Below, in pieces: positions 5,617 to 64,000 of a stretch of 64,000 nt of DNA; within the stretch, counting starts at the first letter, position 1, and each line of letters starts with the position of its first letter. The DNA is taken from the NCBI GenBank assembly GCA_965207975.1, contig OZ242315.1:4106449-4170448 (forward strand), in the 5' to 3' direction. Below the pieces are notes generated by a model that had not been told where the DNA came from, did not search any database, and worked only from the letters and a program-made list of their open reading frames with translations. The DNA is from Candidatus Poribacteria bacterium (GTDB taxonomy: Bacteria; Poribacteria; WGA-4E; PCPOR2b). The translations under genes were made by a program, and so were the position numbers.

Positions 5617-5747
5617 TAATGTTCCTCCAAACTAACTGTTATTTATTGCTAGTGAAATGATGCCAATCGGTAATCTGTGCAGGCGTATTGCTCAAAGTAC
5701 AAAATAGCAGCGTACTCACAAATATAAATGGGTGTGTCCTAATCTTC

Positions 5748-45365: not shown

Positions 45366-46820
45366 TCAGTAGGGATTCTCCGCTGTTGTTATAGGACACC
45401 AGCGGGAGGTCAACAGGTCGTCCCATAAAGCATTTTGTGCTTCGGGCGTTCCGATCTGCCGCAATACCGCAGCCGCATAGTAACGAACATACCGGTCCTC
45501 ATCGCTTAACCTTCCCGCCAATGTTGGCACGATACCATCTGCCGATTGACCAATTTTTGCGAGTGCCATCACCGCGTTGAGTCGAACCAGCATCTCTGAG
45601 TCGCTTGAGACCTGCATCAACGCTGGAACAATGTTTTCGGCAGGGGTTGCAATTGTTCCCAACGCCTCCGCTGCATTACGGCGGACCCACAAACTCTCAT
45701 CACGCAGTCGCTGAATCAATGCGGGCACAGCCTCTTCCGCAAGCAAGCCCAGATTGCCCAACGTATCCGCGGCTGCCGCACGGGTGGTCCAAGACGCATC
45801 CCCTAACGCCGAAATCAATGCCGGTACACTGGACTGCCCCACCTCGGTCAGTGCTTGGGAGGCATACAAATCTGCTGGATTGCCCCCTTGTGGATTCGAT
45901 GCAGTTTTTGCGACATTTGTTTCCGCCAAAGCCTCGGCTTCTGCTTGTAACGCTTGCATTAATGCCGGTATGACAGATTCCCCCAACTCGCCCAGCGCGT
46001 AAGCCGACTTCAGGCGAACACTTTCATCGGTATCTCGTAGCCCCGCTATCAGTTGTGACACGGAGCCATTTTCGTCGGGTTCGACGGGCATCGAATCTGC
46101 ACCATCACTTTGAAAGAGCCATTTCCAGACATGCCTCGATAATGCGTGATGTTTGTCGTTATTCGCAGGTTGCCAATGCGTATGCCCGTTACCCGGTAGG
46201 GATTGAGAGGGTTCCTGCATCCGTGTGAACTGAAACTTCAGCATGTAACGTTTTTTGTTGCTACAGTTTGCCATCGCCCGATGCCACGAATCGAAATTGA
46301 CAAGTGTTACCGTGCCCGCCTTGCCACAAAGGGCTTTCGCCCGCTCAGTGCTTTGTGTCGGGTTCGTGTCGGAAACCGTATTGTAATACTGCTTTCCGGG
46401 TAAGATCCCTGTCGGTCCCATGTCTTCGGTGACATCTTGTGGATAGTAGAAAGCCATCACCCATCGAAAGCGATGATGCCGCACTTTTTGGTCAAAGATG
46501 TAGTCATCCTTATGCCAAGTTTGTCCGTCACTCCCCGGTGAGTTGAGATGACAGTAGCGATGGGGATGGATCAGGTAATCTGGGCCCAGCAGACTCGTCA
46601 ACGCACCGCAAACCTTCGGATGCTCGAAAACTCGCTGAATATCAGGGATCCGGGGCAGCAGATTATTTCCCGGATTCCCTTCCTTCGCAAGCACCTCTTC
46701 GATCTGCTGATAGATGTCCTCATGAATGTTGGTCGGAAAATCAGCTTGAATTTGGATATGCCCGTTGACAATAAAGTCCCGAATTTCTTTGGGGTTAAGG
46801 AGATACGCCTTGTCCACCAT
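45366..46820 (-). CDS. Phytanoyl-CoA dioxygenase (PhyH) family protein fused to C-terminal HEAT/PBS-lyase-like repeats
   Basis: An N-terminal 2OG-Fe(II) PhyH-like region. The C-terminal half has repeated ..VR..AA.ALG.IG.. HEAT-like units. Confidence 0.6.
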   Translation of the reverse strand: MVDKAYLLNPKEIRDFIVNGHIQIQADFPTNIHEDIYQQIEEVLAKEGNPGNNLLPRIPDIQRVFEHPKVCGALTSLLGPDYLIHPHRYCHLNSPGSDGQTWHKDDYIFDQKVRHHRFRWVMAFYYPQDVTEDMGPTGILPGKQYYNTVSDTNPTQSTERAKALCGKAGTVTLVNFDSWHRAMANCSNKKRYMLKFQFTRMQEPSQSLPGNGHTHWQPANNDKHHALSRHVWKWLFQSDGADSMPVEPDENGSVSQLIAGLRDTDESVRLKSAYALGELGESVIPALMQALQAEAEALAETNVAKTASNPQGGNPADLYASQALTEVGQSSVPALISALGDASWTTRAAAADTLGNLGLLAEEAVPALIQRLRDESLWVRRNAAEALGTIATPAENIVPALMQVSSDSEMLVRLNAVMALAKIGQSADGIVPTLAGRLSDEDRYVRYYAAAVLRQIGTPEAQNALWDDLLTSRWCPITTAENPY

Positions 46821-51460: not shown

Positions 51461-51512
51461 GAAATCGTGCAACAGAAACCGAGTTTTGAAGAAAAAACTC
51501 GGTTTCTCTTCA
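51461..51512. repeat. REP/MITE-like palindromic element copy 2 (aagaaatcgtgcaacagaaaccgagtttt-gaagaaa-aaactcggtttctcttca)
   Basis: An imperfect ~50-bp palindrome, intergenic between the CaiB and acyl-CoA dehydrogenase genes. Near-identical copies are at 24863-24908, 53065-53107 (inverted), 59730-59787 and 57637-57737 (the last with an insertion). Confidence 0.7.
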
Positions 51513-53064: not shown

Positions 53065-53107
53065 GAAGAGAAACCGAGTTTTGAAGAAAAAACTCGGTTT
53101 CTTTGCA
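53065..53107. repeat. REP/MITE-like palindromic element copy 3 (inverted orientation)
   Basis: gaagagaaaccgagttttgaagaaaaaactcggtttctttgcac. This copy is the reason the ORF-track start at 53036 is spurious. Confidence 0.7.
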
Positions 53108-55118: not shown

Positions 55119-55267
55119 AAATGTATTCCTCCTGAAATGGTTATATTGGTAGGACTTACGCAGTTGAAGGCTCAAAGTCTCCATATTGAGAGTCTCCGAC
55201 TTGTGTGTGTGAGGGGCATCTCCCGCAAGTTCCGATTCCATCGGAATGCCCGGAACGGCACGAGGAT

Positions 55268-55311
55268 CCCGATAAATCGGGACCTGCCCCGATACGCCCG
55301 ATAAATCGGGC
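55268..55311. repeat. Two copies of CCCGATAAATCGGG mini-hairpin flanking CCCCGATACG
   Basis: Read directly at 55268-55281 and 55298-55311. Same family as the 52976-53035 and 34424-34438 copies. Confidence 0.6.
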
Positions 55312-55327
55312 AACTACAGTAAAGTCT

Positions 55328-55394
55328 CAGGTTTGTAGTAGGGCGATTTATCGCCCGTTCGGACGCGCAATGAATTGCGCTACTACAAACTCAG
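55328..55394. ncRNA. About 67-nt multi-stem structured element (candidate ncRNA or complex repeat)
   Basis: Outer 14-15-bp stem ctcaggtttgtagtag / ctactacaaactcag encloses two perfect hairpins, GGCGAT-tt-ATCGCC and GCGCAAT-ga-ATTGCGC. Intergenic. Confidence 0.35.
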
Positions 55395-55624
55395 TGTGCA
55401 ACTCCTAATGGAGTTAAGGATGATATTTTAACACAAATTGTTAGGGCGTGTTGATATTTATGTGAATCATATCAGTGATTCAAGCCCCAATATCGCTTAA
55501 CATCAAGGCATGGGCACACAGGTACACAGCACGCATCGGATTTAGAGCAAGCGGGACACAAAAAAAGGGGGTATCCTTAGAAATCCAAAGATACACCCCT
55601 ATTCTGATTCGATTGAGATTGTCG

Positions 55625-56143
55625 CTACGGTGCTTCCCACCTGATGATACCCACCTGATTGTGAACGGTCACACGATTGGCAACTTCATCGGCGTATAAC
55701 TGCACAGCATTGGCAGCCTCCGGGTTGTAGACGGTTACGCGATTGGTGACTTTACCCGCAGATAAACGAACCCCATCTTTTCCAAACGGATTGCGGACGA
55801 TGACACGATTTGCTAGTTCACTCGTGCGTAACAGCACCGCAGGCTCTCCTGATTTATCAGCGACAGCGAGGTTGTTTCCTATTTCATCAGCGACTAAGAG
55901 AACTGCCGGCGTGCCCTGAGGATTGTGGATAACAATCCCATTGCCCAAAGTCTCATCGGTACGTAAGACAATCGCGGGCTCTCCCGACATATTGACCACC
56001 GTTAGCCCGGTACATTGAATCTCACCGAGAACGTCCCCCTTTTGTGCAATCAGCGGCGGACAAAGGGTTGCACCGACTCCAATCCCAATCAGCATAATAA
56101 CCGCGCCTAATGCGATGTAGAAACACTTCTGTTTCTGATTCAT
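55625..56143 (-). CDS. Hypothetical membrane-anchored protein with about six 22-23-aa tandem repeats (gene 4 of the unknown operon)
   Basis: An N-terminal TM helix, then repeats of the type NRVTVxNPxGxxAVxLxADEVA. 4-bp overlap with the upstream gene. Confidence 0.5.
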   Translation of the reverse strand: MNQKQKCFYIALGAVIMLIGIGVGATLCPPLIAQKGDVLGEIQCTGLTVVNMSGEPAIVLRTDETLGNGIVIHNPQGTPAVLLVADEIGNNLAVADKSGEPAVLLRTSELANRVIVRNPFGKDGVRLSAGKVTNRVTVYNPEAANAVQLYADEVANRVTVHNQVGIIRWEAP

Positions 56144-56373
56144 TCCGTGTCTCCCCGGTCAATGGCTTGGGCTTTATGCTCACGCTCCCACCGTTCCATC
56201 GCCTCTTTTAGACGTTTCAGATTCTCTTCACACGGTGAACACTCCTCCTCCGTTTCCAACTCAACCTGTTGGGGAGCAGGGACACCGGGCAACTGGTCTG
56301 TTGCATACGCAATGAACAACCCTACAATCACCAAAACACAGAATAATCCCCACGTTATCATAAACACTTTCAT
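56140..56373 (-). CDS. Hypothetical small membrane protein with CxxC (CSPCEEN) and a C-terminal charged helix (gene 3)
   Basis: 77 aa, TM helix residues 5-25. 4-bp overlaps on both sides. Confidence 0.45.
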   Translation of the reverse strand: MKVFMITWGLFCVLVIVGLFIAYATDQLPGVPAPQQVELETEEECSPCEENLKRLKEAMERWEREHKAQAIDRGDTE

Positions 56374-56858
56374 TGAGAAATCTCCTCCTCCGATTTATCG
56401 GAGTCCTCGGAACGGGATCTGTTTCGGTGCTGTTCTATCTGCTTTGCAACCTCTGGGTCGTTTTCTCTGAGACGGCGGAGCCCTTCTTCGGGACCGTACC
56501 GCTCCAAAGTATTCATTGCCCGCTCGAACCGCTCTGATGAAAACTGTAATTTCAGGGAAGCTTCCAGATTGCTTTGAATCTCTCCCAGTTTGTCAGGACT
56601 TGGCGCAGTAGGTATATCAGGCGGTTGAGGTGTCAACGAGCTTTCGATTTCTGCCCGAATCTCTGCATTAGTCATTGGAGCACTTTCCGATGTGTCAAGC
56701 GTAGTAGGCATTTCCGTTTCGCTGTGAGACGCTGAGGGGCTTTCCATGACAGACGACATATCCCACGAAGGGACAGCAGGCTGTGATTCGGGCACATCGC
56801 CTCCCGCTTTCTCTGCTGCTACAACAATGCTTGCCGCGTTTCGCTGCACATCAGCCAT
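56370..56858 (-). CDS. Hypothetical acidic, Pro/Ser/Glu-rich protein with a C-terminal helical region (gene 2)
   Basis: 162 aa with a low-complexity N-terminal half. Immediately adjacent to gene 1. Confidence 0.45.
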   Translation of the reverse strand: MADVQRNAASIVVAAEKAGGDVPESQPAVPSWDMSSVMESPSASHSETEMPTTLDTSESAPMTNAEIRAEIESSLTPQPPDIPTAPSPDKLGEIQSNLEASLKLQFSSERFERAMNTLERYGPEEGLRRLRENDPEVAKQIEQHRNRSRSEDSDKSEEEISQ

Positions 56859-57566
56859 TCAGACAAGTGCGGGGTTGCTTTCCATGCCTGGCCACTCTGG
56901 TCTACGGTAACCAGCAAAGTCTTCGTCGAACTGCCCTAGGAACCAGGCATAATTCCGATCATTTTTGAGTCCGAATTCACTGAACACTTTGCCACGTTGA
57001 TCTGCTGCTGCTATCGGGTCCTCAAGATTGACCCGTTCAGCGGAGAGAAACAACTTCGCTATCTTTAGACGCATCTCGGGCTCATAATCCTCCGGTTCCC
57101 CGGTGGGAAAGTATTTACGGAAGACCTGGTCCCATATGGTTCGATCTAACGAAATCCCTTTCGATTCAAAAAAGTCAAACCATTTTCCGTAATCGAGCCC
57201 TGTTTTCCGAGATTCTTTTAAATGTTCGATGTACTCTGGCGAATCCATAGCCTCAAGGATTTTTTGCTGCACTGGTGTTGTGGGTTCACCATATATGGCC
57301 ATTGCATTACTTTTTGCGCGCCGTGCGACCCTTTCCTCGAAAGGCAGCAGCTCTGTCTCCTGATCTCCGTCGAAATTTTGAGAAGGTTGCGGGAGGTTCT
57401 GCTTTCCGGCAGTTATTCCATCGTTGGAGGAAGCGGACTTCTCATAAGTCAGAAGGGCTCTGACCTTATGTTCCCGGAGAAAAAACCACACCGACACGCA
57501 AACGGCTATCCCTATCAAAAACGCGCTACCCACAAGCACCACTTTTCTGATTCGTTCGATTTTCAT
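56859..57566 (-). CDS. Hypothetical N-terminally membrane-anchored protein (gene 1 of the four-gene operon)
   Basis: 235 aa with one N-terminal TM helix (VVLVGSAFLIGIAVCVSVWFFL). No known domain recognised. Confidence 0.45.
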   Translation of the reverse strand: MKIERIRKVVLVGSAFLIGIAVCVSVWFFLREHKVRALLTYEKSASSNDGITAGKQNLPQPSQNFDGDQETELLPFEERVARRAKSNAMAIYGEPTTPVQQKILEAMDSPEYIEHLKESRKTGLDYGKWFDFFESKGISLDRTIWDQVFRKYFPTGEPEDYEPEMRLKIAKLFLSAERVNLEDPIAAADQRGKVFSEFGLKNDRNYAWFLGQFDEDFAGYRRPEWPGMESNPALV

Positions 57567-57636
57567 TAATTTTTACCTTTCGATTTGAAGGTAGCCCCCG
57601 GCTTCCCCTAAAAAAACGCAGGTTGCTAGTAGCATA

Positions 57637-57737
57637 GAAAAACCGAGTTTTTCGCGCTTATATCGTCTGATTTGGGGAAAATGGGTTGGATTTTCCCTTA
57701 AATTGTGTATCTTCTATGTAAAAAACTCGGTTTCTCC
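57637..57737. repeat. REP/MITE-like element copy 5, whose two palindrome arms are separated by a 66-bp insertion containing its own hairpin (GGGAAAAT-N7-ATTTTCCC)
   Basis: Left arm agaaaaaccgagttttt (57637-57653), right arm aaaaaactcggtttctcc (57720-57737). Confidence 0.55.
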
Positions 57738-57901
57738 AAGTTACTTTGTAGTTTCCTGTGAGATCAGTCAATCGGTTTTAATGCGTGTTCTGCTGGGGCC
57801 CTGAATGCGTAAGGATTGGGTTTCCCAACCCGTCGGGCTTCGGAACCAAGCCCCTACGATTTTGGAGGAGTTATGACGTAATACGGCATAACTCCCTAAA
57901 A

Positions 57902-59626
57902 TTAGTTGCAAGATGTGTTTGCATATCCAAAAAATTCCGTGATACGTCGCTTGAAAAGCAGCGTCAACACAAGCTGAATCAGTCCCAAAGCGGTCATTAC
58001 AAATACGATGAGGATAATCGAGAGCGCAGCCGCTTGCGAGAAGTCGCTGTTCTCAACGAAGCCGAGGATTGCCACAGTGATCAGATTCCACCGCCCGGAG
58101 ACAACAAAGATCACCGCACTGATGGCGGTCATACAGCGGACGAAACTGTAAGCGAGTCCAGCGAAAAACGCCGGCGCAATCAGCGGCAACAGGATCCGTC
58201 GAAATGTGGTCAGGCTGCCTGCGCCCAAATTGGTTGAAGCCTCCTCCAGCGAGGAGTCTATCTGGTCTAACGAAGCAGCGGCAGCACGGATTCCGACAGG
58301 CATGTTGCGGAAGATAAATAGCAGCACGATGATAGCCGCTGTCCCTCTCAACATAAGCGGTGGTTGGTTAAAAGCGAGGATATAGCCGATGCCGACCACC
58401 GTCCCCGGCACGGCAAAACTCAACATAGAGGTCACATCCATTAACCCGCGCCCCACAAACTGCTTCCGCTTGACCAGAAACGCAATGACCATTCCTAGCA
58501 CCCCTGTCAACGGTGTGGCAATCGCTGCGAGCAGGAGGGAGTCTACGATGTAATCGGCTCCTAGGCGAAAGGCTTCCACATAGTTGTTCAGCGTCAGCGA
58601 ATAATTGACACCCCATAGCGTAGTGAACGATCCAACTACCACCAACCCGTAAAAAAGAAGGACACATCCTACCGTTCCCCAGCAGATAGCCATCAGCGGA
58701 TACTGTACCCGTTTATCAGCCGTTTGCACCCCTGCTCCTGATGCCCGTCCTGTCAGTGCGACGAAGCTGCGTTGGCGTAGGAGATAGTGCTGTAAGAAAT
58801 AGACAGCAAGTGAGGGCAGTAGGAGTGCCATCGCCAGTGTTGCCCCACCGGGGAGGTTGTCATTGCCGGTGATTTGGAGATACGCCTGCACGGAAAGGAC
58901 GTTGAACCGGCCCGCCAAGATAAGCGGATTGCCGAAATCTGCCATTGACTCGATGAACAGCAGCAGCATCGCATTTACAATCCCCGGCAACGAAAGCGGG
59001 ACTGTAACAGTTCGGAAGACCTTCCACCGAGATGCACCGAGATTTGATGCCGCTTCCTCCAATGCTGGATCAATGGACGATAGCACACCGACCAACACCA
59101 GATAGGCGGTGGGGAAGTAGGCGAGTGTCTCAACAATAACTAGCCCGGTCAGACCGTAGATGTCGAAACCTGCTGCGTAGAGATCTATGCCGAGTCCTTC
59201 GAGGAGGAGTTTCCGGGTGATTATGCCGTTTCGACCAAACAGGAGGATCGCGGAGAGCGCGATAACGAAGGGCGGGGAGATAATCGGCAGGAGTGTGCTA
59301 GCTTGGAGGAGTCTTTTGAACCGCATATCCGTCTTTGTGACGGCGTATGCACAGGCGAATCCGACGGTTGTGCCGAGCAACGCGACGCAGATGCCCAAGA
59401 CGATACTGTTGTAGAACGGCTGCCGATTGTAGGATTTGGCGAACAGTTCCCAGACATACTTGAGCGTGAATGTTGAACCATCTTTCGCGATGAAACAGGT
59501 CTTGAACACCTGAAACAGCGGAAACACCACGAACAGGAGGAGCAGCACGCTGATGAGAATAACGGCTATGAGGACGGAGGGTTCACGCCAAAAGTGGTTC
59601 CAATTGATGAGAGATTTTCGTGGCAT
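57902..59626 (-). CDS. ABC transporter permease with two fused transmembrane domains (iron(III)/FbpB-like)
   Basis: 574 aa, about 12 TM helices, and two EAA-like permease motifs. Confidence 0.7.
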   Translation of the reverse strand: MPRKSLINWNHFWREPSVLIAVILISVLLLLFVVFPLFQVFKTCFIAKDGSTFTLKYVWELFAKSYNRQPFYNSIVLGICVALLGTTVGFACAYAVTKTDMRFKRLLQASTLLPIISPPFVIALSAILLFGRNGIITRKLLLEGLGIDLYAAGFDIYGLTGLVIVETLAYFPTAYLVLVGVLSSIDPALEEAASNLGASRWKVFRTVTVPLSLPGIVNAMLLLFIESMADFGNPLILAGRFNVLSVQAYLQITGNDNLPGGATLAMALLLPSLAVYFLQHYLLRQRSFVALTGRASGAGVQTADKRVQYPLMAICWGTVGCVLLFYGLVVVGSFTTLWGVNYSLTLNNYVEAFRLGADYIVDSLLLAAIATPLTGVLGMVIAFLVKRKQFVGRGLMDVTSMLSFAVPGTVVGIGYILAFNQPPLMLRGTAAIIVLLFIFRNMPVGIRAAAASLDQIDSSLEEASTNLGAGSLTTFRRILLPLIAPAFFAGLAYSFVRCMTAISAVIFVVSGRWNLITVAILGFVENSDFSQAAALSIILIVFVMTALGLIQLVLTLLFKRRITEFFGYANTSCN

Positions 59627-59729
59627 CGGAAAAAAGGAAGCTACACCATTGCCAATCAGTTGTCATCCAACCCGCAGTCCCGTTAGATCCGGAATTGAGA
59701 TCAAAAGGCGAAAATAAAAAGGCTCATGT

Positions 59730-59787
59730 GAAGAAATCGTGCAACAGAAACCGAGTTTTCAAGAAAAAACTCGGTTTCTCTTCATGC
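59730..59787. repeat. REP/MITE-like palindromic element copy 4
   Basis: gaagaaatcgtgcaacagaaaccgagttttcaagaaaaaactcggtttctcttcatg, intergenic. Confidence 0.7.
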
Positions 59788-59877
59788 TTTGCACTCTCTT
59801 TTTATATGAGGCAATAAAAAAAGCAGGGAATGGTCTTCCCTGCTTTTTTGCTGATTCATGCGACAAGATATTGCCAC

Positions 59878-61335
59878 CTACATACCACCAGCCGGTGCCT
59901 TTTCGTCTTCGGCTTGCTGTTTCTTAGCGTCCGGATTGTCGTTAGGATCTTTATCGGAGGTGCCGGCTTCCTGTTCGACATAGAATTTGAAGCCATCGCC
60001 ATCCTGATCCAGCTCATACTGACGGACAATCTGCTCTGCCTCACGGTAGTATTTGCCTTCTTTGTCTAAGCTCATATAAGCTTTGAAACCTTCATAGGCT
60101 TCCTCGAACTCGCGGACAGCACGATAACAAACGGCTAGCTGATACACCGCTTCATCCCGCCAAGTGGATTCGGGGGCTTTCTTTAGCATATCTTCAAAGG
60201 CAGCGATTGCGCGCTGATACTGCCCATCTTTCTGATACAGGTCGCCAATCCGAAACAGTGCGTCTGCGGCATGGAACTTTTTGTATGACAGATTTTCTGC
60301 CAATTTACGGTACGCAGCAATTGCAGCCGGATAGTTTCTCATCTTGACCCAACCAGATCCGATGTTCTGGAAATTCTGGGCGATACGATCTGCGTATCCC
60401 GCAACATACAAATCACTCGGGAGTACGTCCCGTCCTGCACTTATGTAGTCGAGTGCTTTCTGGTTTGTATACTTTTTAATATCAGCCTGATCTTGAGCAA
60501 TCTCTGTCAGGGTTGTTTCTGTTTCCTTGAGCAAGGTTTCCGCATCAGAGGCTTCATAAGAATCTGGAAACTTTTCAATGACTTTGATATAGGCGGGCCA
60601 ACCCCCTATGTAGTCATAAAGTTCGTAAAAGTAGATATTACCAACTTGGAACTGGGCTTGGGGTGCGAGTCTATGTTCAGGGAACTCCGCAACCACTCGT
60701 TCAAACTGCTTAATTGCCTCTTCGGAATTACCGAGTGTTTGGTAAGCACGTGCTTCATCGTAAAGTGCACGTACGGCTTTATCTCTACTATCTTCTGCTT
60801 GTTGGTTGTACAGTTCTATGTCTTCGGGCGCGGTAGCTTCCTTCGCACGCATAGCTAAATCTTTGCTGAGTGGCGCGTGGTTTTGATAGGTACGCCTGTT
60901 TTCTTTAATCACATCGCGATTTTTACGGATATCAGCAATACTACTCTTTGCGCGACCTCCCAAAAAGCCGGTGGGGGCGATGTCTACAATCGCTTGATAA
61001 TGCTCTGTGGATTTATCCCATTCAAAACGTTTTTTGTAGATCGCCGCTGCTTGGAAATGTGAATAGGTTGCATACTTTCCGTTCGGATCTTGCGCGATAA
61101 TTTCGAGATACCCTGTAAGTGCGGCATCATACAGTTCTTTCCGTTTGGCAAGGTCTGCTTTCCTATTTTCGGGGCTATCTGCACGAATGGTCATACCTTG
61201 AGCTTGCTCAAATTTACGGTCTGCATTTTGAACCTTTATACTTGATGGCATCATGCGACCCGTACAACCAGTAATCACCGCCGCTATTATTACAAGCGCG
61301 ATGTAGGGGGCAAGGTTTACAAAACAGCGATTCAT
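59878..61335 (-). CDS. Tetratricopeptide-repeat lipoprotein
   Basis: A signal peptide plus lipobox (..AAVITGCTG), and multiple TPR-like helical repeats. Confidence 0.65.
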   Translation of the reverse strand: MNRCFVNLAPYIALVIIAAVITGCTGRMMPSSIKVQNADRKFEQAQGMTIRADSPENRKADLAKRKELYDAALTGYLEIIAQDPNGKYATYSHFQAAAIYKKRFEWDKSTEHYQAIVDIAPTGFLGGRAKSSIADIRKNRDVIKENRRTYQNHAPLSKDLAMRAKEATAPEDIELYNQQAEDSRDKAVRALYDEARAYQTLGNSEEAIKQFERVVAEFPEHRLAPQAQFQVGNIYFYELYDYIGGWPAYIKVIEKFPDSYEASDAETLLKETETTLTEIAQDQADIKKYTNQKALDYISAGRDVLPSDLYVAGYADRIAQNFQNIGSGWVKMRNYPAAIAAYRKLAENLSYKKFHAADALFRIGDLYQKDGQYQRAIAAFEDMLKKAPESTWRDEAVYQLAVCYRAVREFEEAYEGFKAYMSLDKEGKYYREAEQIVRQYELDQDGDGFKFYVEQEAGTSDKDPNDNPDAKKQQAEDEKAPAGGM

Positions 61336-61507
61336 GGTTATTCCTCCTAACGTTAACTAGATTGATGAATTAGCAGGATTCTCAAGAATCCTGTTTGAAG
61401 TTTTGCTTCATTATAATCGTTTTGCAAAAAATTGTCAACAATCATTTTGAATATTTCGAGGAAGCAATCAATATCGTCGGACTGACCTGACAGTACGCAA
61501 GAGAATT

Positions 61508-62404
61508 TCACTGGCTCAGCTGCGTTGTGAAATTAATGAAAATCTCCCCCGACTGATCGATCTGCGGCACTGTCTTGGGCAAAGCGTTAAATCGAATCCT
61601 TTCGACATATCGTTTGGCTTGCTCTTTGAGTCGAACTTCGCCGACTGTTGTTAGAAAACCGGGCTTCACTCGAACATCGTACACCGTGCCATCGGGTTTC
61701 ACCTTGAAGCCGATCTGGACGCCGCCTCCTTGTTTGCCTTGTGTTTGAATGGGTTTTCCCAAGCTATAACCGCGTCCGCTGACTTCACCGGAAATTTCAA
61801 ACTCGAAGCCAACACCATCGGTAACGTTACTTTGCCCGGTATGGGCTATGTTTCCGGTAGATACCTGCTTGGTCAAGCTGTGTCCGCGTTCCCCTTTATG
61901 TTTGAACCTGTCCGTATCTCGAACGCCTCGACGCGCTGGGGCACCGTAGGACCCCTCCTCATCAACCCGTGGTTTCTCCCGAACCCTAGCGTTCGTAGCC
62001 TCCAAATCGTCGAGTAGCGTCTGATTTCGTCCTTTTACAGGGGCTGCGCCTAACGCCAAACGATTCGGATCTTCGTCGGTGCTCCGCGCTAGGGCACGGG
62101 CGGGTAAGCCGCCTGATGGGCCGCCAGGATTTAGATATCGTTGAACATTGTGAGCAGATTGGATTGGTGGCAATTCGGTGGGCATTTCAGGCTGGCGAAT
62201 CGGAGACATAGCGATAGGAATTTCTTCTTCCATACGCTTCTGCACCGGCTCATTTATCAGAATGTCCACGGTTATGGCTGTGTCATGAACCTTTGGCACA
62301 GGTTTTGTGTAGGCTGCCATAGCTAACACCAGAATCAGTGCCAGATGTTCGACGATTGCAATCCCAAAAAAAGTGCTGAGTTTAACTTCCCCTCGTGTGT
62401 TCAT
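61508..62404 (-). CDS. tonB: TonB-family energy transducer
   Basis: An N-terminal TM anchor, a Pro-rich spacer, and a C-terminal TonB_C-like domain (VQIGFKVKPDGTVYDVRVKPG..). Start overlaps the upstream gene (ATGA). Confidence 0.6.
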   Translation of the reverse strand: MNTRGEVKLSTFFGIAIVEHLALILVLAMAAYTKPVPKVHDTAITVDILINEPVQKRMEEEIPIAMSPIRQPEMPTELPPIQSAHNVQRYLNPGGPSGGLPARALARSTDEDPNRLALGAAPVKGRNQTLLDDLEATNARVREKPRVDEEGSYGAPARRGVRDTDRFKHKGERGHSLTKQVSTGNIAHTGQSNVTDGVGFEFEISGEVSGRGYSLGKPIQTQGKQGGGVQIGFKVKPDGTVYDVRVKPGFLTTVGEVRLKEQAKRYVERIRFNALPKTVPQIDQSGEIFINFTTQLSQ

Positions 62405-63108
62405 CAGTTTGCCTCCTCTTGGATTAAACGTTGAATATCTTCAAATCCATCCTGAAACAGCTTGTGTTCCTCAGCGACAAGGAAGCGGACCAGAGACATA
62501 CCGTGTCTTTCTAGTTCTATTAAAAAGAGCTGCGCCTTGCTGTTGAAATAGTAGTAGGCAACATATGTTGGTAGCGCGATCATTAACCCAGCGGCTGTTG
62601 TGATTAAGGCTTGGGAGATACCGGCAGCAATCTCGCTTGACTGTCCCACCTGTCCTTCCACTTCATAAAGGTTGCCAAATGAGGCGATCATGCCGAGAAA
62701 TGTGCCAAGTAAGCCTATATATATCGCAACAGCAGACAACATTCCCAAAGTATGGAGGTATCGCGTCAATTTCGGTTTCTCGCCATTGATGGATAAACGG
62801 ATGACCCGTTTAAGGGTTTCCTCATCGGCGTTTCTGTGTTCTATTCCAGTGCGAAGAATATTTGTCAAAGGCCCTGGTCGCCTCTCACACATCTGGATTG
62901 CGATTTCAGGATTGCCCTGCACAAGTTCATGATAGATGCTGCGGGTCACAAACTGTGATGGAATGACTCGTTCACGGCGCAGATGATAAATCCGTTCCAT
63001 AATAATCGCGTGTGCACAGATCGAACAACCGATCAGGGGGATGAGAAGGATTCCGCCCTCACTCAACTGTTCTAATCCTAAAATGATCATCTCAATCGGG
63101 TTGCCCAT
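62404..63108 (-). CDS. exbB: MotA/TolQ/ExbB proton-channel family protein
   Basis: 234 aa, 3 TM helices, and a conserved C-terminal motif region. No ExbD/TolR gene follows. Confidence 0.7.
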   Translation of the reverse strand: MGNPIEMIILGLEQLSEGGILLIPLIGCSICAHAIIMERIYHLRRERVIPSQFVTRSIYHELVQGNPEIAIQMCERRPGPLTNILRTGIEHRNADEETLKRVIRLSINGEKPKLTRYLHTLGMLSAVAIYIGLLGTFLGMIASFGNLYEVEGQVGQSSEIAAGISQALITTAAGLMIALPTYVAYYYFNSKAQLFLIELERHGMSLVRFLVAEEHKLFQDGFEDIQRLIQEEAN

Positions 63109-63142
63109 GATAGATTTGTTTTCCTATCCCGCTGTAAAGCGG

Positions 63143-64000
63143 TCAAAATTTTAACTCAATCCCGAAATCAAAGTTACTCTGCGACAGTTCATACATTTCT
63201 AATAGACGGTACTCTCCAATCGCAAACGCGCCACCAACAAAGGCATTAATATAGCCTCCAATTGTTTTGCTTAATTTGGGTTTCAACAGGAGATAGCCGT
63301 TTAATGTTTCATCGGTCATCGTATCAACATATCTGGGGCCCTGCAATTCGGCTTTAAGCGCGACATGGAACTCCGATGGAAGGTGATACACCACATCCAG
63401 ATCGATACGATCCGCTGCTCTATAAGGGATTTGCTCACCCATTGTTGGTGTTGAAACCTCATGTGTGTATCGAAACCGCAGGTCGAGACGGTCAACAATG
63501 CGAGCGGAAATAAGCAGCTGTCCGCCGTAGATTGATGCCTCAATATTCGTCGGAGTCCATGAAAGCTCTGCCTTGGCGGTTTCAGTCGATGGCACACCAA
63601 TCTTTTCGAGATGTTCCTTCAGGGGAGTAAGGACCACGAGATCGTCTATCTGTCTTGCGAAACCGGATAGATCAACTTCAAATTTCGCACCTCGATGATG
63701 CTTTAGTGTAATTTGTGCGTTCCAAGCCTTTTCCGGACGGAGGAGTGAGTTGAGGCTGATGTAATCTGTGTCAAAGTAAAGTGTCGACAATCGGTGCCGC
63801 GTAATTGTCCGAACCCCTTCAATTCGGATTAACCACTGTTTGTCAAGATGGGTTGTCAAAACAAGAGACGGGTTTAACTGCAAGTCCACTTTATTTTCGC
63901 TAGTTTCAGCGTCAGTCTGTTGCGGCGTGTCCGTTATGTTTAATTGTGGGTCTGCCTCCTCCTCGCCAATTTCAGTGCCGCTTTGTTGAGGTACGTCTGT
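63143..64000 (-). CDS. Putative outer-membrane beta-barrel protein, 5' partial (the reading frame stays open to the window edge)
   Basis: C-terminal ..GIELKF (terminal Phe) and alternating hydrophobic beta-strand pattern. The frame upstream of the listed GTG start has no stop up to position 64000. Confidence 0.45.
   Translation of the reverse strand, partial: TDVPQQSGTEIGEEEADPQLNITDTPQQTDAETSENKVDLQLNPSLVLTTHLDKQWLIRIEGVRTITRHRLSTLYFDTDYISLNSLLRPEKAWNAQITLKHHRGAKFEVDLSGFARQIDDLVVLTPLKEHLEKIGVPSTETAKAELSWTPTNIEASIYGGQLLISARIVDRLDLRFRYTHEVSTPTMGEQIPYRAADRIDLDVVYHLPSEFHVALKAELQGPRYVDTMTDETLNGYLLLKPKLSKTIGGYINAFVGGAFAIGEYRLLEMYELSQSNFDFGIELKF

Follow-up and report, generated by a model that had tools for sequence, protein, structure and literature searches.

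Four consecutive open reading frames (ORFs) on the minus strand of a Candidatus Poribacteria genome raise the question of whether they form an undescribed system and, if they do, what kind of system it is. They lie in a 64,000-nucleotide stretch (the window; contig OZ242315.1 of assembly GCA_965207975.1, positions 4,106,449 to 4,170,448), encode 235, 162, 77 and 172 amino acids, and are called A, B, C and D here. An earlier note, made from the letters alone, had taken them for four translationally coupled genes and for a candidate undescribed system. The locus is a degenerate copy of a multi-copy envelope cassette of which all detected relatives occur in Poribacteria. A further cassette gene, S, is absent here; A and B are the two parts of one cut gene, AB; C and D are intact.

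An ORF scan reproduced the four frames at A, 56859-57566 (235 aa plus stop); B, 56370-56858 (162 aa plus stop); C, 56140-56373; and D, 55625-56143, all on the minus strand and with junctions of 0-4 bp. A and B abut with 0 bp between them, and B/C and C/D each share a 4-bp ATGA overlap. A hydrophobic helix of about 22 residues opens A, C and D, which agrees with the three proteins that had been credited with a single N-terminal transmembrane (TM) helix. The lack of a recognised family also held, as Pfam and NCBIfam gave no match for any of the four.

The A/B junction is where the count of four genes fails. The two frames are the same and a TGA alone separates them (56859-56861, minus strand; context CTT GTC TGA ATG). 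A search with A returned 55 protein clusters. Leaving aside A and a few from short contigs, all have 343-410 aa and span A and B together. Alignments of 12 and of 32 homologues show an invariant Trp where the stop falls, within the motif NPALVW ("LVW"), and the codon change at this residue (W236 of the family) is TGG to TGA. AB is a single ORF of 358-410 aa in 17 cassettes of other genomes, one of which, at locus L011, is split further downstream. Because the frame is shared and single-protein homologues carry Trp at the stop, the 0-bp junction is not a gene boundary and the unit consists of three genes, AB, C and D. AB (56370-57566, minus strand) is one ancestral gene of about 398 codons that is interrupted in the window copy. 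The acidic low-complexity protein that had been seen in B is indeed acidic (net charge −16) but is not an independent protein: it comprises the end of the AB alpha domain, the acidic tether and the C-terminal module.

The stop falls within a helix of the alpha domain and cuts off the last two helices of that domain. Fragment A therefore keeps the TM helix, the linker and the alpha domain minus these two helices, and B has neither a membrane or signal segment nor a Shine-Dalgarno sequence; all segments of AB are present in the window, and the single ORF of about 365-410 aa that characterises AB in the cassette is interrupted by the TGA at the invariant Trp. The TGA is a genuine stop here because TGA also terminates B and C of the same operon. 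Recoding of TGA as Trp, or as selenocysteine, was considered for this position and rejected on the same ground, and the aligned residue is Trp, not Cys. The public annotation enters A (235 aa), B and C as separate proteins of a 6.79-Mb contig; its 235-aa and 162-aa "proteins" each represent half of a single interrupted gene. A recent pseudogene is the most likely status of the window copy, which is probably non-functional or weakly functional. C and D remain intact and might still be translated from ribosome-binding sites of their own: a strong Shine-Dalgarno sequence (GGAGGAGGAG, 56382-56391, minus strand) belongs to C, and the purine-rich GGGGAG precedes the start of D. Rare read-through of UGA by tRNA-Trp would restore the ancestral Trp and the full-length protein.

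The other parts of the window copy carry the features that define the cassette elsewhere. C has a TM helix, the motif ECSPCEEN and a start that overlaps the AB stop. D has the N-terminus MNxKQK, the sequence PPLIAQ, an invariant Cys and six hairpin units, and is 94% identical to the syntenic copy at locus L001. An intrinsic-terminator-like hairpin with a 10-bp stem and a T run (55571-55594, minus strand), 31 nt past the D stop, closes the unit. No second copy of the cassette was found in the window.

Relatives were collected by a genome scan that combined two short peptide patterns with tblastn in one genome per GTDB species. It yielded 45 loci with a D relative, 45/45 in metagenome-assembled genomes of Candidatus Poribacteria and often several per genome. 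Only seven related loci were found in JGI metagenomes, and none among 2.9 million viral contigs. The order AB-C-D recurs in all 11 loci with a close D relative and in two further genomes, which bears out the idea of a conserved undescribed gene cluster; the canonical order of the cassette is S-AB-C-D. No description of it was found in the literature library that was searched, the "srp RiPP" clusters (ribosomally synthesised and post-translationally modified peptides) of sponge symbionts being unrelated YcaO-type pathways.

At least seven genomes, the window included, have the cassette at the same site (loci L001, L002, L003, L004, L053 and L054). The shared genes on its 5' side are, in order, those for a TonB-dependent receptor, ExbB, a 298-aa protein that matches TonB_C weakly, a TPR protein and a two-domain ABC permease, which adjoins the cassette; past the cassette the order continues with a TIM-barrel isomerase, a GFO/IDH/MocA oxidoreductase, an acyl-CoA dehydrogenase and a CoA transferase. 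The flanking DNA is 85-92% identical to that of L001-L003. One copy occupies the site in the window, L002, L003, L053 and L054, and three copies each are found in L001 and L004. The repeats in the L001 and L004 arrays include a fragment of the 3' end of the permease gene, which shows segmental tandem duplication. An intact cassette is found in L053 (7572-9937). Cassettes at other sites (L006-L011) sometimes lie beside an integrase or transposases of the insertion sequence (IS) families IS4/5, and some arrays (L001, L010) contain S-AB units without C-D. Damage is common. Besides the window copy, D is truncated in L009, L010 and L054, AB is split in L011, and AB is lost in L005.

Some details of these loci were recorded in passing. 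In L001, a frameshift near position 5634, which could be a long-read indel error, disrupts the first AB before its C-terminal module. D of L054 (9363-9593) is called at only 76 aa. The mobile genes at cassettes are a tyrosine integrase (L008, 2904-3905), IS4/5 transposase fragments between S and AB in L007 (3140-3931) and two downstream DDE transposases in L054 (12296-14688).

The layout of AB was numbered on an intact homologue, P0088. From the N-terminus it comprises a TM helix, a disordered linker, an all-alpha domain, an acidic tether rich in Pro, Ser and Glu, and a helical C-terminal module with the motif FSSERFERAM..YGPEEGLRRLRENDPE. In an AlphaFold2 (AF2) model of P0088 built from 32 sequences (the models of P0088 and D are monomers), residues 75-256 are all-helical with a predicted local distance difference test score (pLDDT) mostly above 90, and residues 332-387 mostly score about 81-92. 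The linker (35 residues) and the acidic tether (about 75) are disordered in the model, and the C-terminal module of about 55 residues is helical. The AB model found no fold neighbour with Foldseek, with best E-values of 2 in the PDB and 0.2 in BFVD. With some 180 residues, a confident prediction and no fold neighbour, the helical domain is a candidate structural novelty.

An AB-profile search with HMMER in 1.84 billion representatives gave 450 relatives, many of which match the C-terminal module only. This module (consensus FSxERFxRAMxTLxRYGPEEGLRRLRExDPE) ends several differently built Poribacteria membrane proteins at the loci. No Pfam family was common to 47 diverse AB-family members, and scans of these members, A, B, C, D, P0088 and S in Pfam, NCBIfam, PADLOC and PHROGs gave nothing consistent. 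PDB sequence searches with profiles of D, AB, S and the C-terminal module returned no match or non-significant ones (best E of the module, 0.04).

Two side observations concern the module. A 204-aa protein of L039 (9163-9777) joins a C-like TM helix and two CSPC-plus-helix units to the YGPEEGLRRLRE module of AB, a fusion which suggests that small helical units, of the CSPC type and of the AB type, may be shuffled as modules. Homology of CSPCEENLKRLKE in C to YGPEEGLRRLRE in AB was considered and is unproven, with an hhalign probability of 3%. A second cassette type (L029, 3977-6516; L034, 3169-6516; L039, 4000-6333) follows the same logic with different parts: a 398-421-aa membrane protein has another ectodomain and the same C-terminal module as AB, a TM-anchored acidic helical protein of 230 aa replaces C, and there is a distant D-like gene.

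The CxxC motif that had been noticed in the 77-aa protein C is CSPC (codons at 56230-56241, minus strand). It stands in the invariant ECSPCEENLKRLKEA after the TM helix and an acidic stretch; the CSPC columns are invariant in 13/13 C sequences, and the conserved EENLKRLKEA comes next. The sequence after CSPC probably forms an amphipathic helix. The ectodomain of C has 53 residues, about 29 of them past CSPC. A conserved CxxC at what appears from sequence to be the N-terminus of a helix recalls thiol-disulfide oxidoreductases of the thioredoxin, Dsb and CcmH-like kinds. Unlike these, C has no thioredoxin fold and no CcmH or Mia40 core, none of which was matched in Pfam or NCBIfam.

D begins with a helix (residues 3-27) and a short disordered stretch, followed by repeat units at residues 41-172. 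The tandem repeats described for this protein amount to about 5.5-6 units of 22 residues. An AF2 model built from 25 sequences (pLDDT 86) shows them as 12 strands, i.e., six 22-residue hairpins in an antiparallel sheet, and hairpin sheet is the predicted fold class of D. The modelled sheet is amphipathic, with one face almost wholly made of Val, Leu, Ile and Ala; this single hydrophobic face implies that a partner ought to cover it. The residue Cys44, where the sheet begins, does not vary even among relatives of 25-30% identity. Most family members have AIVSPPLIAQ and no lipobox.

The fold search, a check the earlier note had proposed, found a neighbour for D and none for AB. The D model superposes on the single-layer sheet of OspA from Borrelia in engineered extended variants (such as PDB 3cka, 5z1o and 6kk9; Foldseek E 1e-5 to 1e-4, TM-score 0.5-0.61, root-mean-square deviation 3.4-3.9 Å over about 135 columns). 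However, identity is only 10-13%, the D profile has no PDB match, and D has a TM or signal helix, no lipobox and no globular end domains. Whereas the OspA sheet is exposed to solvent on both faces, that of D has one hydrophobic face and is probably partner-dependent. Hairpin repeats of about 20-22 residues also occur in YD/Rhs proteins, teneurin shells and the TarM hairpin domain, for which Foldseek gave weak matches (E 6e-3 to 3e-2); the TM-scores were 0.2-0.37, and D has six hairpins but no YD motif, shell or toxin domain. The engineered OspA sheets would have in D, as modelled, a natural and amphipathic counterpart, which is a candidate structural novelty.

Remote D-like genes were seen at L031, L032, L035 and L037, as tandem groups with up to three to four members (L035, 5986-8411; L037, 7028-8542). 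One encodes a lipoprotein of 504 aa that has about 20 hairpin repeats (GKDGKSxAxLGxxEHGGSVxAF). The groups adjoin a gene whose product of 604-629 aa has a Walker-type motif and matches Terminase_6N only below threshold (E 0.008). Beside another D-like subgroup, a protein with an FRG domain and TPR recurs (L013, 4169-5824; also L016, L019, L024 and L033).

Directly upstream of AB, 13 cassettes have an ORF of 87-122 codons, S. Public annotations call it as a gene, and its 16 homologue clusters are all unnamed. It precedes AB in most cassettes and has a conserved signal peptide and paired cysteines, and it is a real gene. The signal peptide is of the ordinary Sec type (MFxTKRRL..IVGFLV..G). The mature part has about 55-60 residues with cysteines spaced C-x6-C-x10-C-x8-C-x10-C-x6-C; the second and fifth are lost jointly in two members, and an extra pair (the second C of a "CC" and a C-terminal C) is gained jointly. 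A hairpin of two helices, held together by three or four disulfides, would fit this symmetry and the pairwise changes. Such a six-cysteine hairpin peptide would be structurally novel. The best PDB match of the S profile was CP12, at a non-significant E of 0.15.

The window has no S. The 335-bp spacer between the ABC permease and A (57567-57901, minus strand) gave no match in tblastn with 10 S proteins, and its three-frame translation is stop-rich. An S gene hidden in this spacer, which holds a split repetitive extragenic palindromic (REP)-like hairpin, was rejected on both counts. The orthologous spacers of L001-L004 lack the REP arms and have S instead. No RNA family of Rfam was found in the whole window, so the spacer is not a known leader or riboswitch.

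The REP-like repeats that had been noted nearby are real. The intergenic palindrome AAACCGAGTTTT-N6-AAAACTCGGTTT has three exact copies in the window (51476-51505, 53071-53100 and 59748-59777), against none expected. In the split copy upstream of A, the arms (57628-57652 and 57721-57745) are separated by a 68-nt insert, at the place of the S gene in other genomes.

To see how the parts of the cassette evolve relative to each other, synonymous (dS) and nonsynonymous (dN) divergence were calculated by the Nei-Gojobori method between the window and the syntenic L002. The flanking genes have dS 0.29-0.46 and dN 0.01-0.03. Close to these are D (dS 0.36, dN 0.07), C (dS 0.41, dN 0.09) and the C-terminal module of AB (dS 0.23, dN 0.07). 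The alpha domain of AB has dS 0.92 and dN 0.34, and the TM helix plus linker dS 0.80 and dN 0.65. The same pattern was obtained with L001 and with L003. The raised dS of the variable part indicates an older, different allele in an otherwise orthologous locus and not merely faster evolution.

Mantel tests on 13 cassettes (5000 permutations) show which parts travel together. Distances of S correlate with those of the alpha domain (r = 0.63, p = 0.0002) and neither with those of the C-terminal module of AB (r = −0.07) nor with those of D (r = −0.13); the alpha domain and the C-terminal module of the same AB are uncorrelated as well (r = −0.05). This pattern separates a variable module, made of S and the N-terminal two-thirds of AB, from a constant module made of the C-terminal module of AB, C and D. 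The boundary between them lies in the low-complexity acidic tether. Judged from these sequence comparisons, the cassette is a mosaic.

Judged from their topology, all products of the cassette are extracytoplasmic, in keeping with the envelope anchoring that had been proposed. The TM helices of AB, C and D begin no later than about residue 10 and are preceded by eight residues at most. In AB, the TM helix is better conserved (60% identity) than the linker (31%) and the alpha domain (52%). The same holds in D for the TM segment (65%) and the beta region (46%); the D N-terminus reaches 73% and PPLIAQ 80%. This conservation favours functional membrane helices over disposable signal peptides.

From these parts a mechanism can be proposed. 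Through three conserved TM helices, AB, C and D would associate in the inner membrane with their domains in the periplasm, and the hydrophobic face of D might pack onto a second D or onto the AB and C helices. The cognate S peptide would be bound by the variable helical domain of AB, so that S and AB may form a strain-specific recognition pair, composed of a peptide and a tethered binder or of a toxin and its immunity protein. The conserved cysteines, i.e., CSPC in C, Cys44 in D and the ladder in S, could serve in disulfide exchange or covalent assembly. A strain-variable recognition pair on a common envelope scaffold is the reading that we favour, tentatively.

The manner of evolution points in the same direction. 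A co-varying variable module, a conserved backbone, orphan modules and arrays were all found, and the copy number of one to three at one site, the stand-alone S-AB modules and the truncated or split copies represent a turnover typical of conflict or recognition families. By analogy, the cassette is best read as evolving like polymorphic toxin-immunity or pherotype loci. It shares with toxin-immunity and bacteriocin arrays the variable-on-constant modules, orphan modules, decay and a gene for a small secreted disulfide-rich peptide beside one for a membrane protein. Unlike in those arrays, no toxin, immunity, leader-peptidase or exporter domain occurs in S, AB, C or D, the putative binder is a tethered protein of about 390 aa, and each unit has two further conserved envelope proteins. 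Spelled out in full, the proposal is that a hypervariable, disulfide-stapled S is matched to a hypervariable receptor domain of AB, that the two are recombined as a unit onto a constant scaffold and diversified by tandem duplication and decay, and that they would serve self/non-self discrimination or competition between strains in the sponge mesohyl, or a host-facing interaction. Taken as a whole, this extended form is rather doubtful.

Several observations weigh against the favoured reading. The co-variation of S and AB could stem from linkage of adjacent genes in one recombination block, not from interaction. With a dN/dS ratio (omega) of 0.2-0.4 in the variable domain, positive selection is not demonstrated. 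S was not called in 7/17 listed cassettes, although gene calling overlooked an S that is present in one of them (L004c). The N-terminal helices may instead be signal peptides that are removed, with candidate cleavage sites AYA|T in C and LIA|Q in D. Family scans recognised no toxin, immunity, transporter or processing domain in the cassette. Finally, the restriction to Poribacteria is a lower-bound statement, as it comes from a two-pattern scan.

The same topology would also suit a lineage-specific structural or housekeeping complex of the envelope, such as a periplasm-spanning tether or scaffold of the TonB/TolA type, with no role in recognition and a variable region that is weakly constrained. 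AB would then provide a TM anchor, a Pro/Glu-rich spacer and a C-terminal docking module, and D a membrane-proximal sheet. TonB and TolA likewise have an N-terminal TM anchor, flexible Pro/Glu/Ser-rich spacers and a small conserved C-terminal domain, which fits the topology of AB, its long disordered acidic tether and its conserved module. That module is common to many differently built Poribacteria membrane proteins (the 450 profile matches), omega is below 1 throughout, and the home site lies directly downstream of the TonB-dependent receptor/ExbB/TonB_C-like/TPR/ABC permease cluster. However, cassettes are also present at sites apart from the TonB cluster (L006-L011), and ExbB/ExbD are not part of the cassette. 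TonB_C, TolA and ExbD matches are absent from AB, C and D in Pfam and NCBIfam, the AB module is all-helical, and AB has an additional helical domain of about 180 residues. Tandem repetition at a single site, here in one to three copies, and many broken copies are both rare for housekeeping complexes. Moreover, dS of the alpha domain is 2-3-fold above that of its own C-terminal module and the flanks, which argues for swapped ancient alleles and not for relaxed constraint, and S and the alpha domain co-vary. These points make a structural tether rather unlikely.

Other readings give the variable or the cysteine-bearing parts a different task. C might oxidise or isomerise the cysteine ladder of S through CSPC in a Mia40-like manner, with AB and D as chaperone or scaffold. 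Mia40 is a membrane-anchored CPC protein that oxidises twin-CxnC helical hairpins. By analogy, the symmetric Cys spacing of S would fit a disulfide-stapled antiparallel helix pair as in CHCH proteins, and C shares with the Mia40 CPC relay a membrane-anchored CxPC-type motif followed by a helix. The invariance of CSPC, the symmetric six-Cys ladder with its paired gains and losses, the invariant lone Cys44 of D and the extracytoplasmic location of all these cysteines are consistent with such S maturation. C, however, has only some 29 residues past its motif, lacks a thioredoxin or Mia40 core and has no Pfam match; C-D also accompany AB in cassettes without S. The analogy with Mia40 is one of motif logic and not of detected similarity, S shows no detected sequence similarity to CHCH proteins, and the setting of the latter is the mitochondrial intermembrane space, in contrast to the bacterial periplasm. 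A maturation machinery is improbable. Quite improbable, too, is a surface module against phages or for superinfection exclusion, with a constant part that prevents entry and a variable domain that keeps pace with the receptor-binding proteins of phages. The fast turnover, the arrays in tandem, the variability of modules and the nearby IS elements and integrase would suit it, as would the terminase-like gene beside distant D-like arrays. That match, however, is below the Pfam threshold and concerns the remote D-like genes only, PADLOC (no family at E ≤ 1 for A, B, C, D and P0088) and PHROGs gave no matches, the viral contigs held no relative and the AB model had no fold match in BFVD. On the PADLOC result, membership of a known defence system is not supported either; a phage origin of the cassette was rejected from the PHROGs, BFVD and viral-contig results. 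The cascade of four coupled envelope proteins that had been speculated about, sigma/anti-sigma-like or stress-sensing, would explain membrane-anchored proteins with periplasmic domains and the CxxC of C. This idea is very improbable: with at most about eight cytoplasmic residues per product, AB, C and D have no cytoplasmic domain, and the CxxC is located past the membrane, facing away from the cytoplasm. Pfam and NCBIfam detected no zf-HC2, RskA or other anti-sigma or kinase domain. No sigma factor, response regulator or kinase gene accompanies the cassette in the contexts examined; a sigma-70 family gene is absent from the flanks of the window copy, from the recurrent neighbours of the 45 loci and from the Pfam-annotated neighbours of L053 and L054.

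We return to the recognition pair as the favoured reading. No known system combines the parts of the cassette, and it stands outside the known kinds by not fitting any one of them; its mechanism is only proposed. Poribacteria are sponge-living bacteria. To our knowledge, little has been established about how closely related strains live side by side and deal with one another, their phages and their host. An all-envelope cassette that is confined to one phylum, present in multiple copies, swaps modules and has no known relatives is a testable candidate for a symbiont interaction system. Its weight is tempered by the fact that lineage-specific hypothetical clusters are common in candidate phyla and that the window copy is broken.

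The surroundings of the cassette agree in part with what had been described. The flanks hold a permease and an isomerase-like protein as expected; the permease is here of the two-domain ABC type, and the isomerase is a xylose-isomerase-like TIM-barrel protein. On the permease side, 57902-63889 (minus strand) forms an uptake-like cluster of a TonB-dependent receptor fragment, ExbB, the 298-aa protein, a 485-aa TPR protein and the fused two-domain permease. The weak TonB_C match of the 298-aa protein lies in its orthologue, and the cluster is kept in at least seven Poribacteria genomes. On the other side, nested palindromes (GGGCGATTTATCGCCC and GTTTGTAGTAG/CTACTACAAAC) occupy 55294-55390 between the D terminator and the isomerase gene. 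The listed isomerase ORF of 319 aa, with a TTG start at 55313, crosses these palindromes. Its orthologues have 254 aa, so the real start is probably near 55140. Further away, 45366-46820 encodes a 484-aa protein with a PhyH (phytanoyl-CoA dioxygenase) domain and HEAT repeats, and PhyH-family genes also flank the cassettes of L029, L034 and L039.

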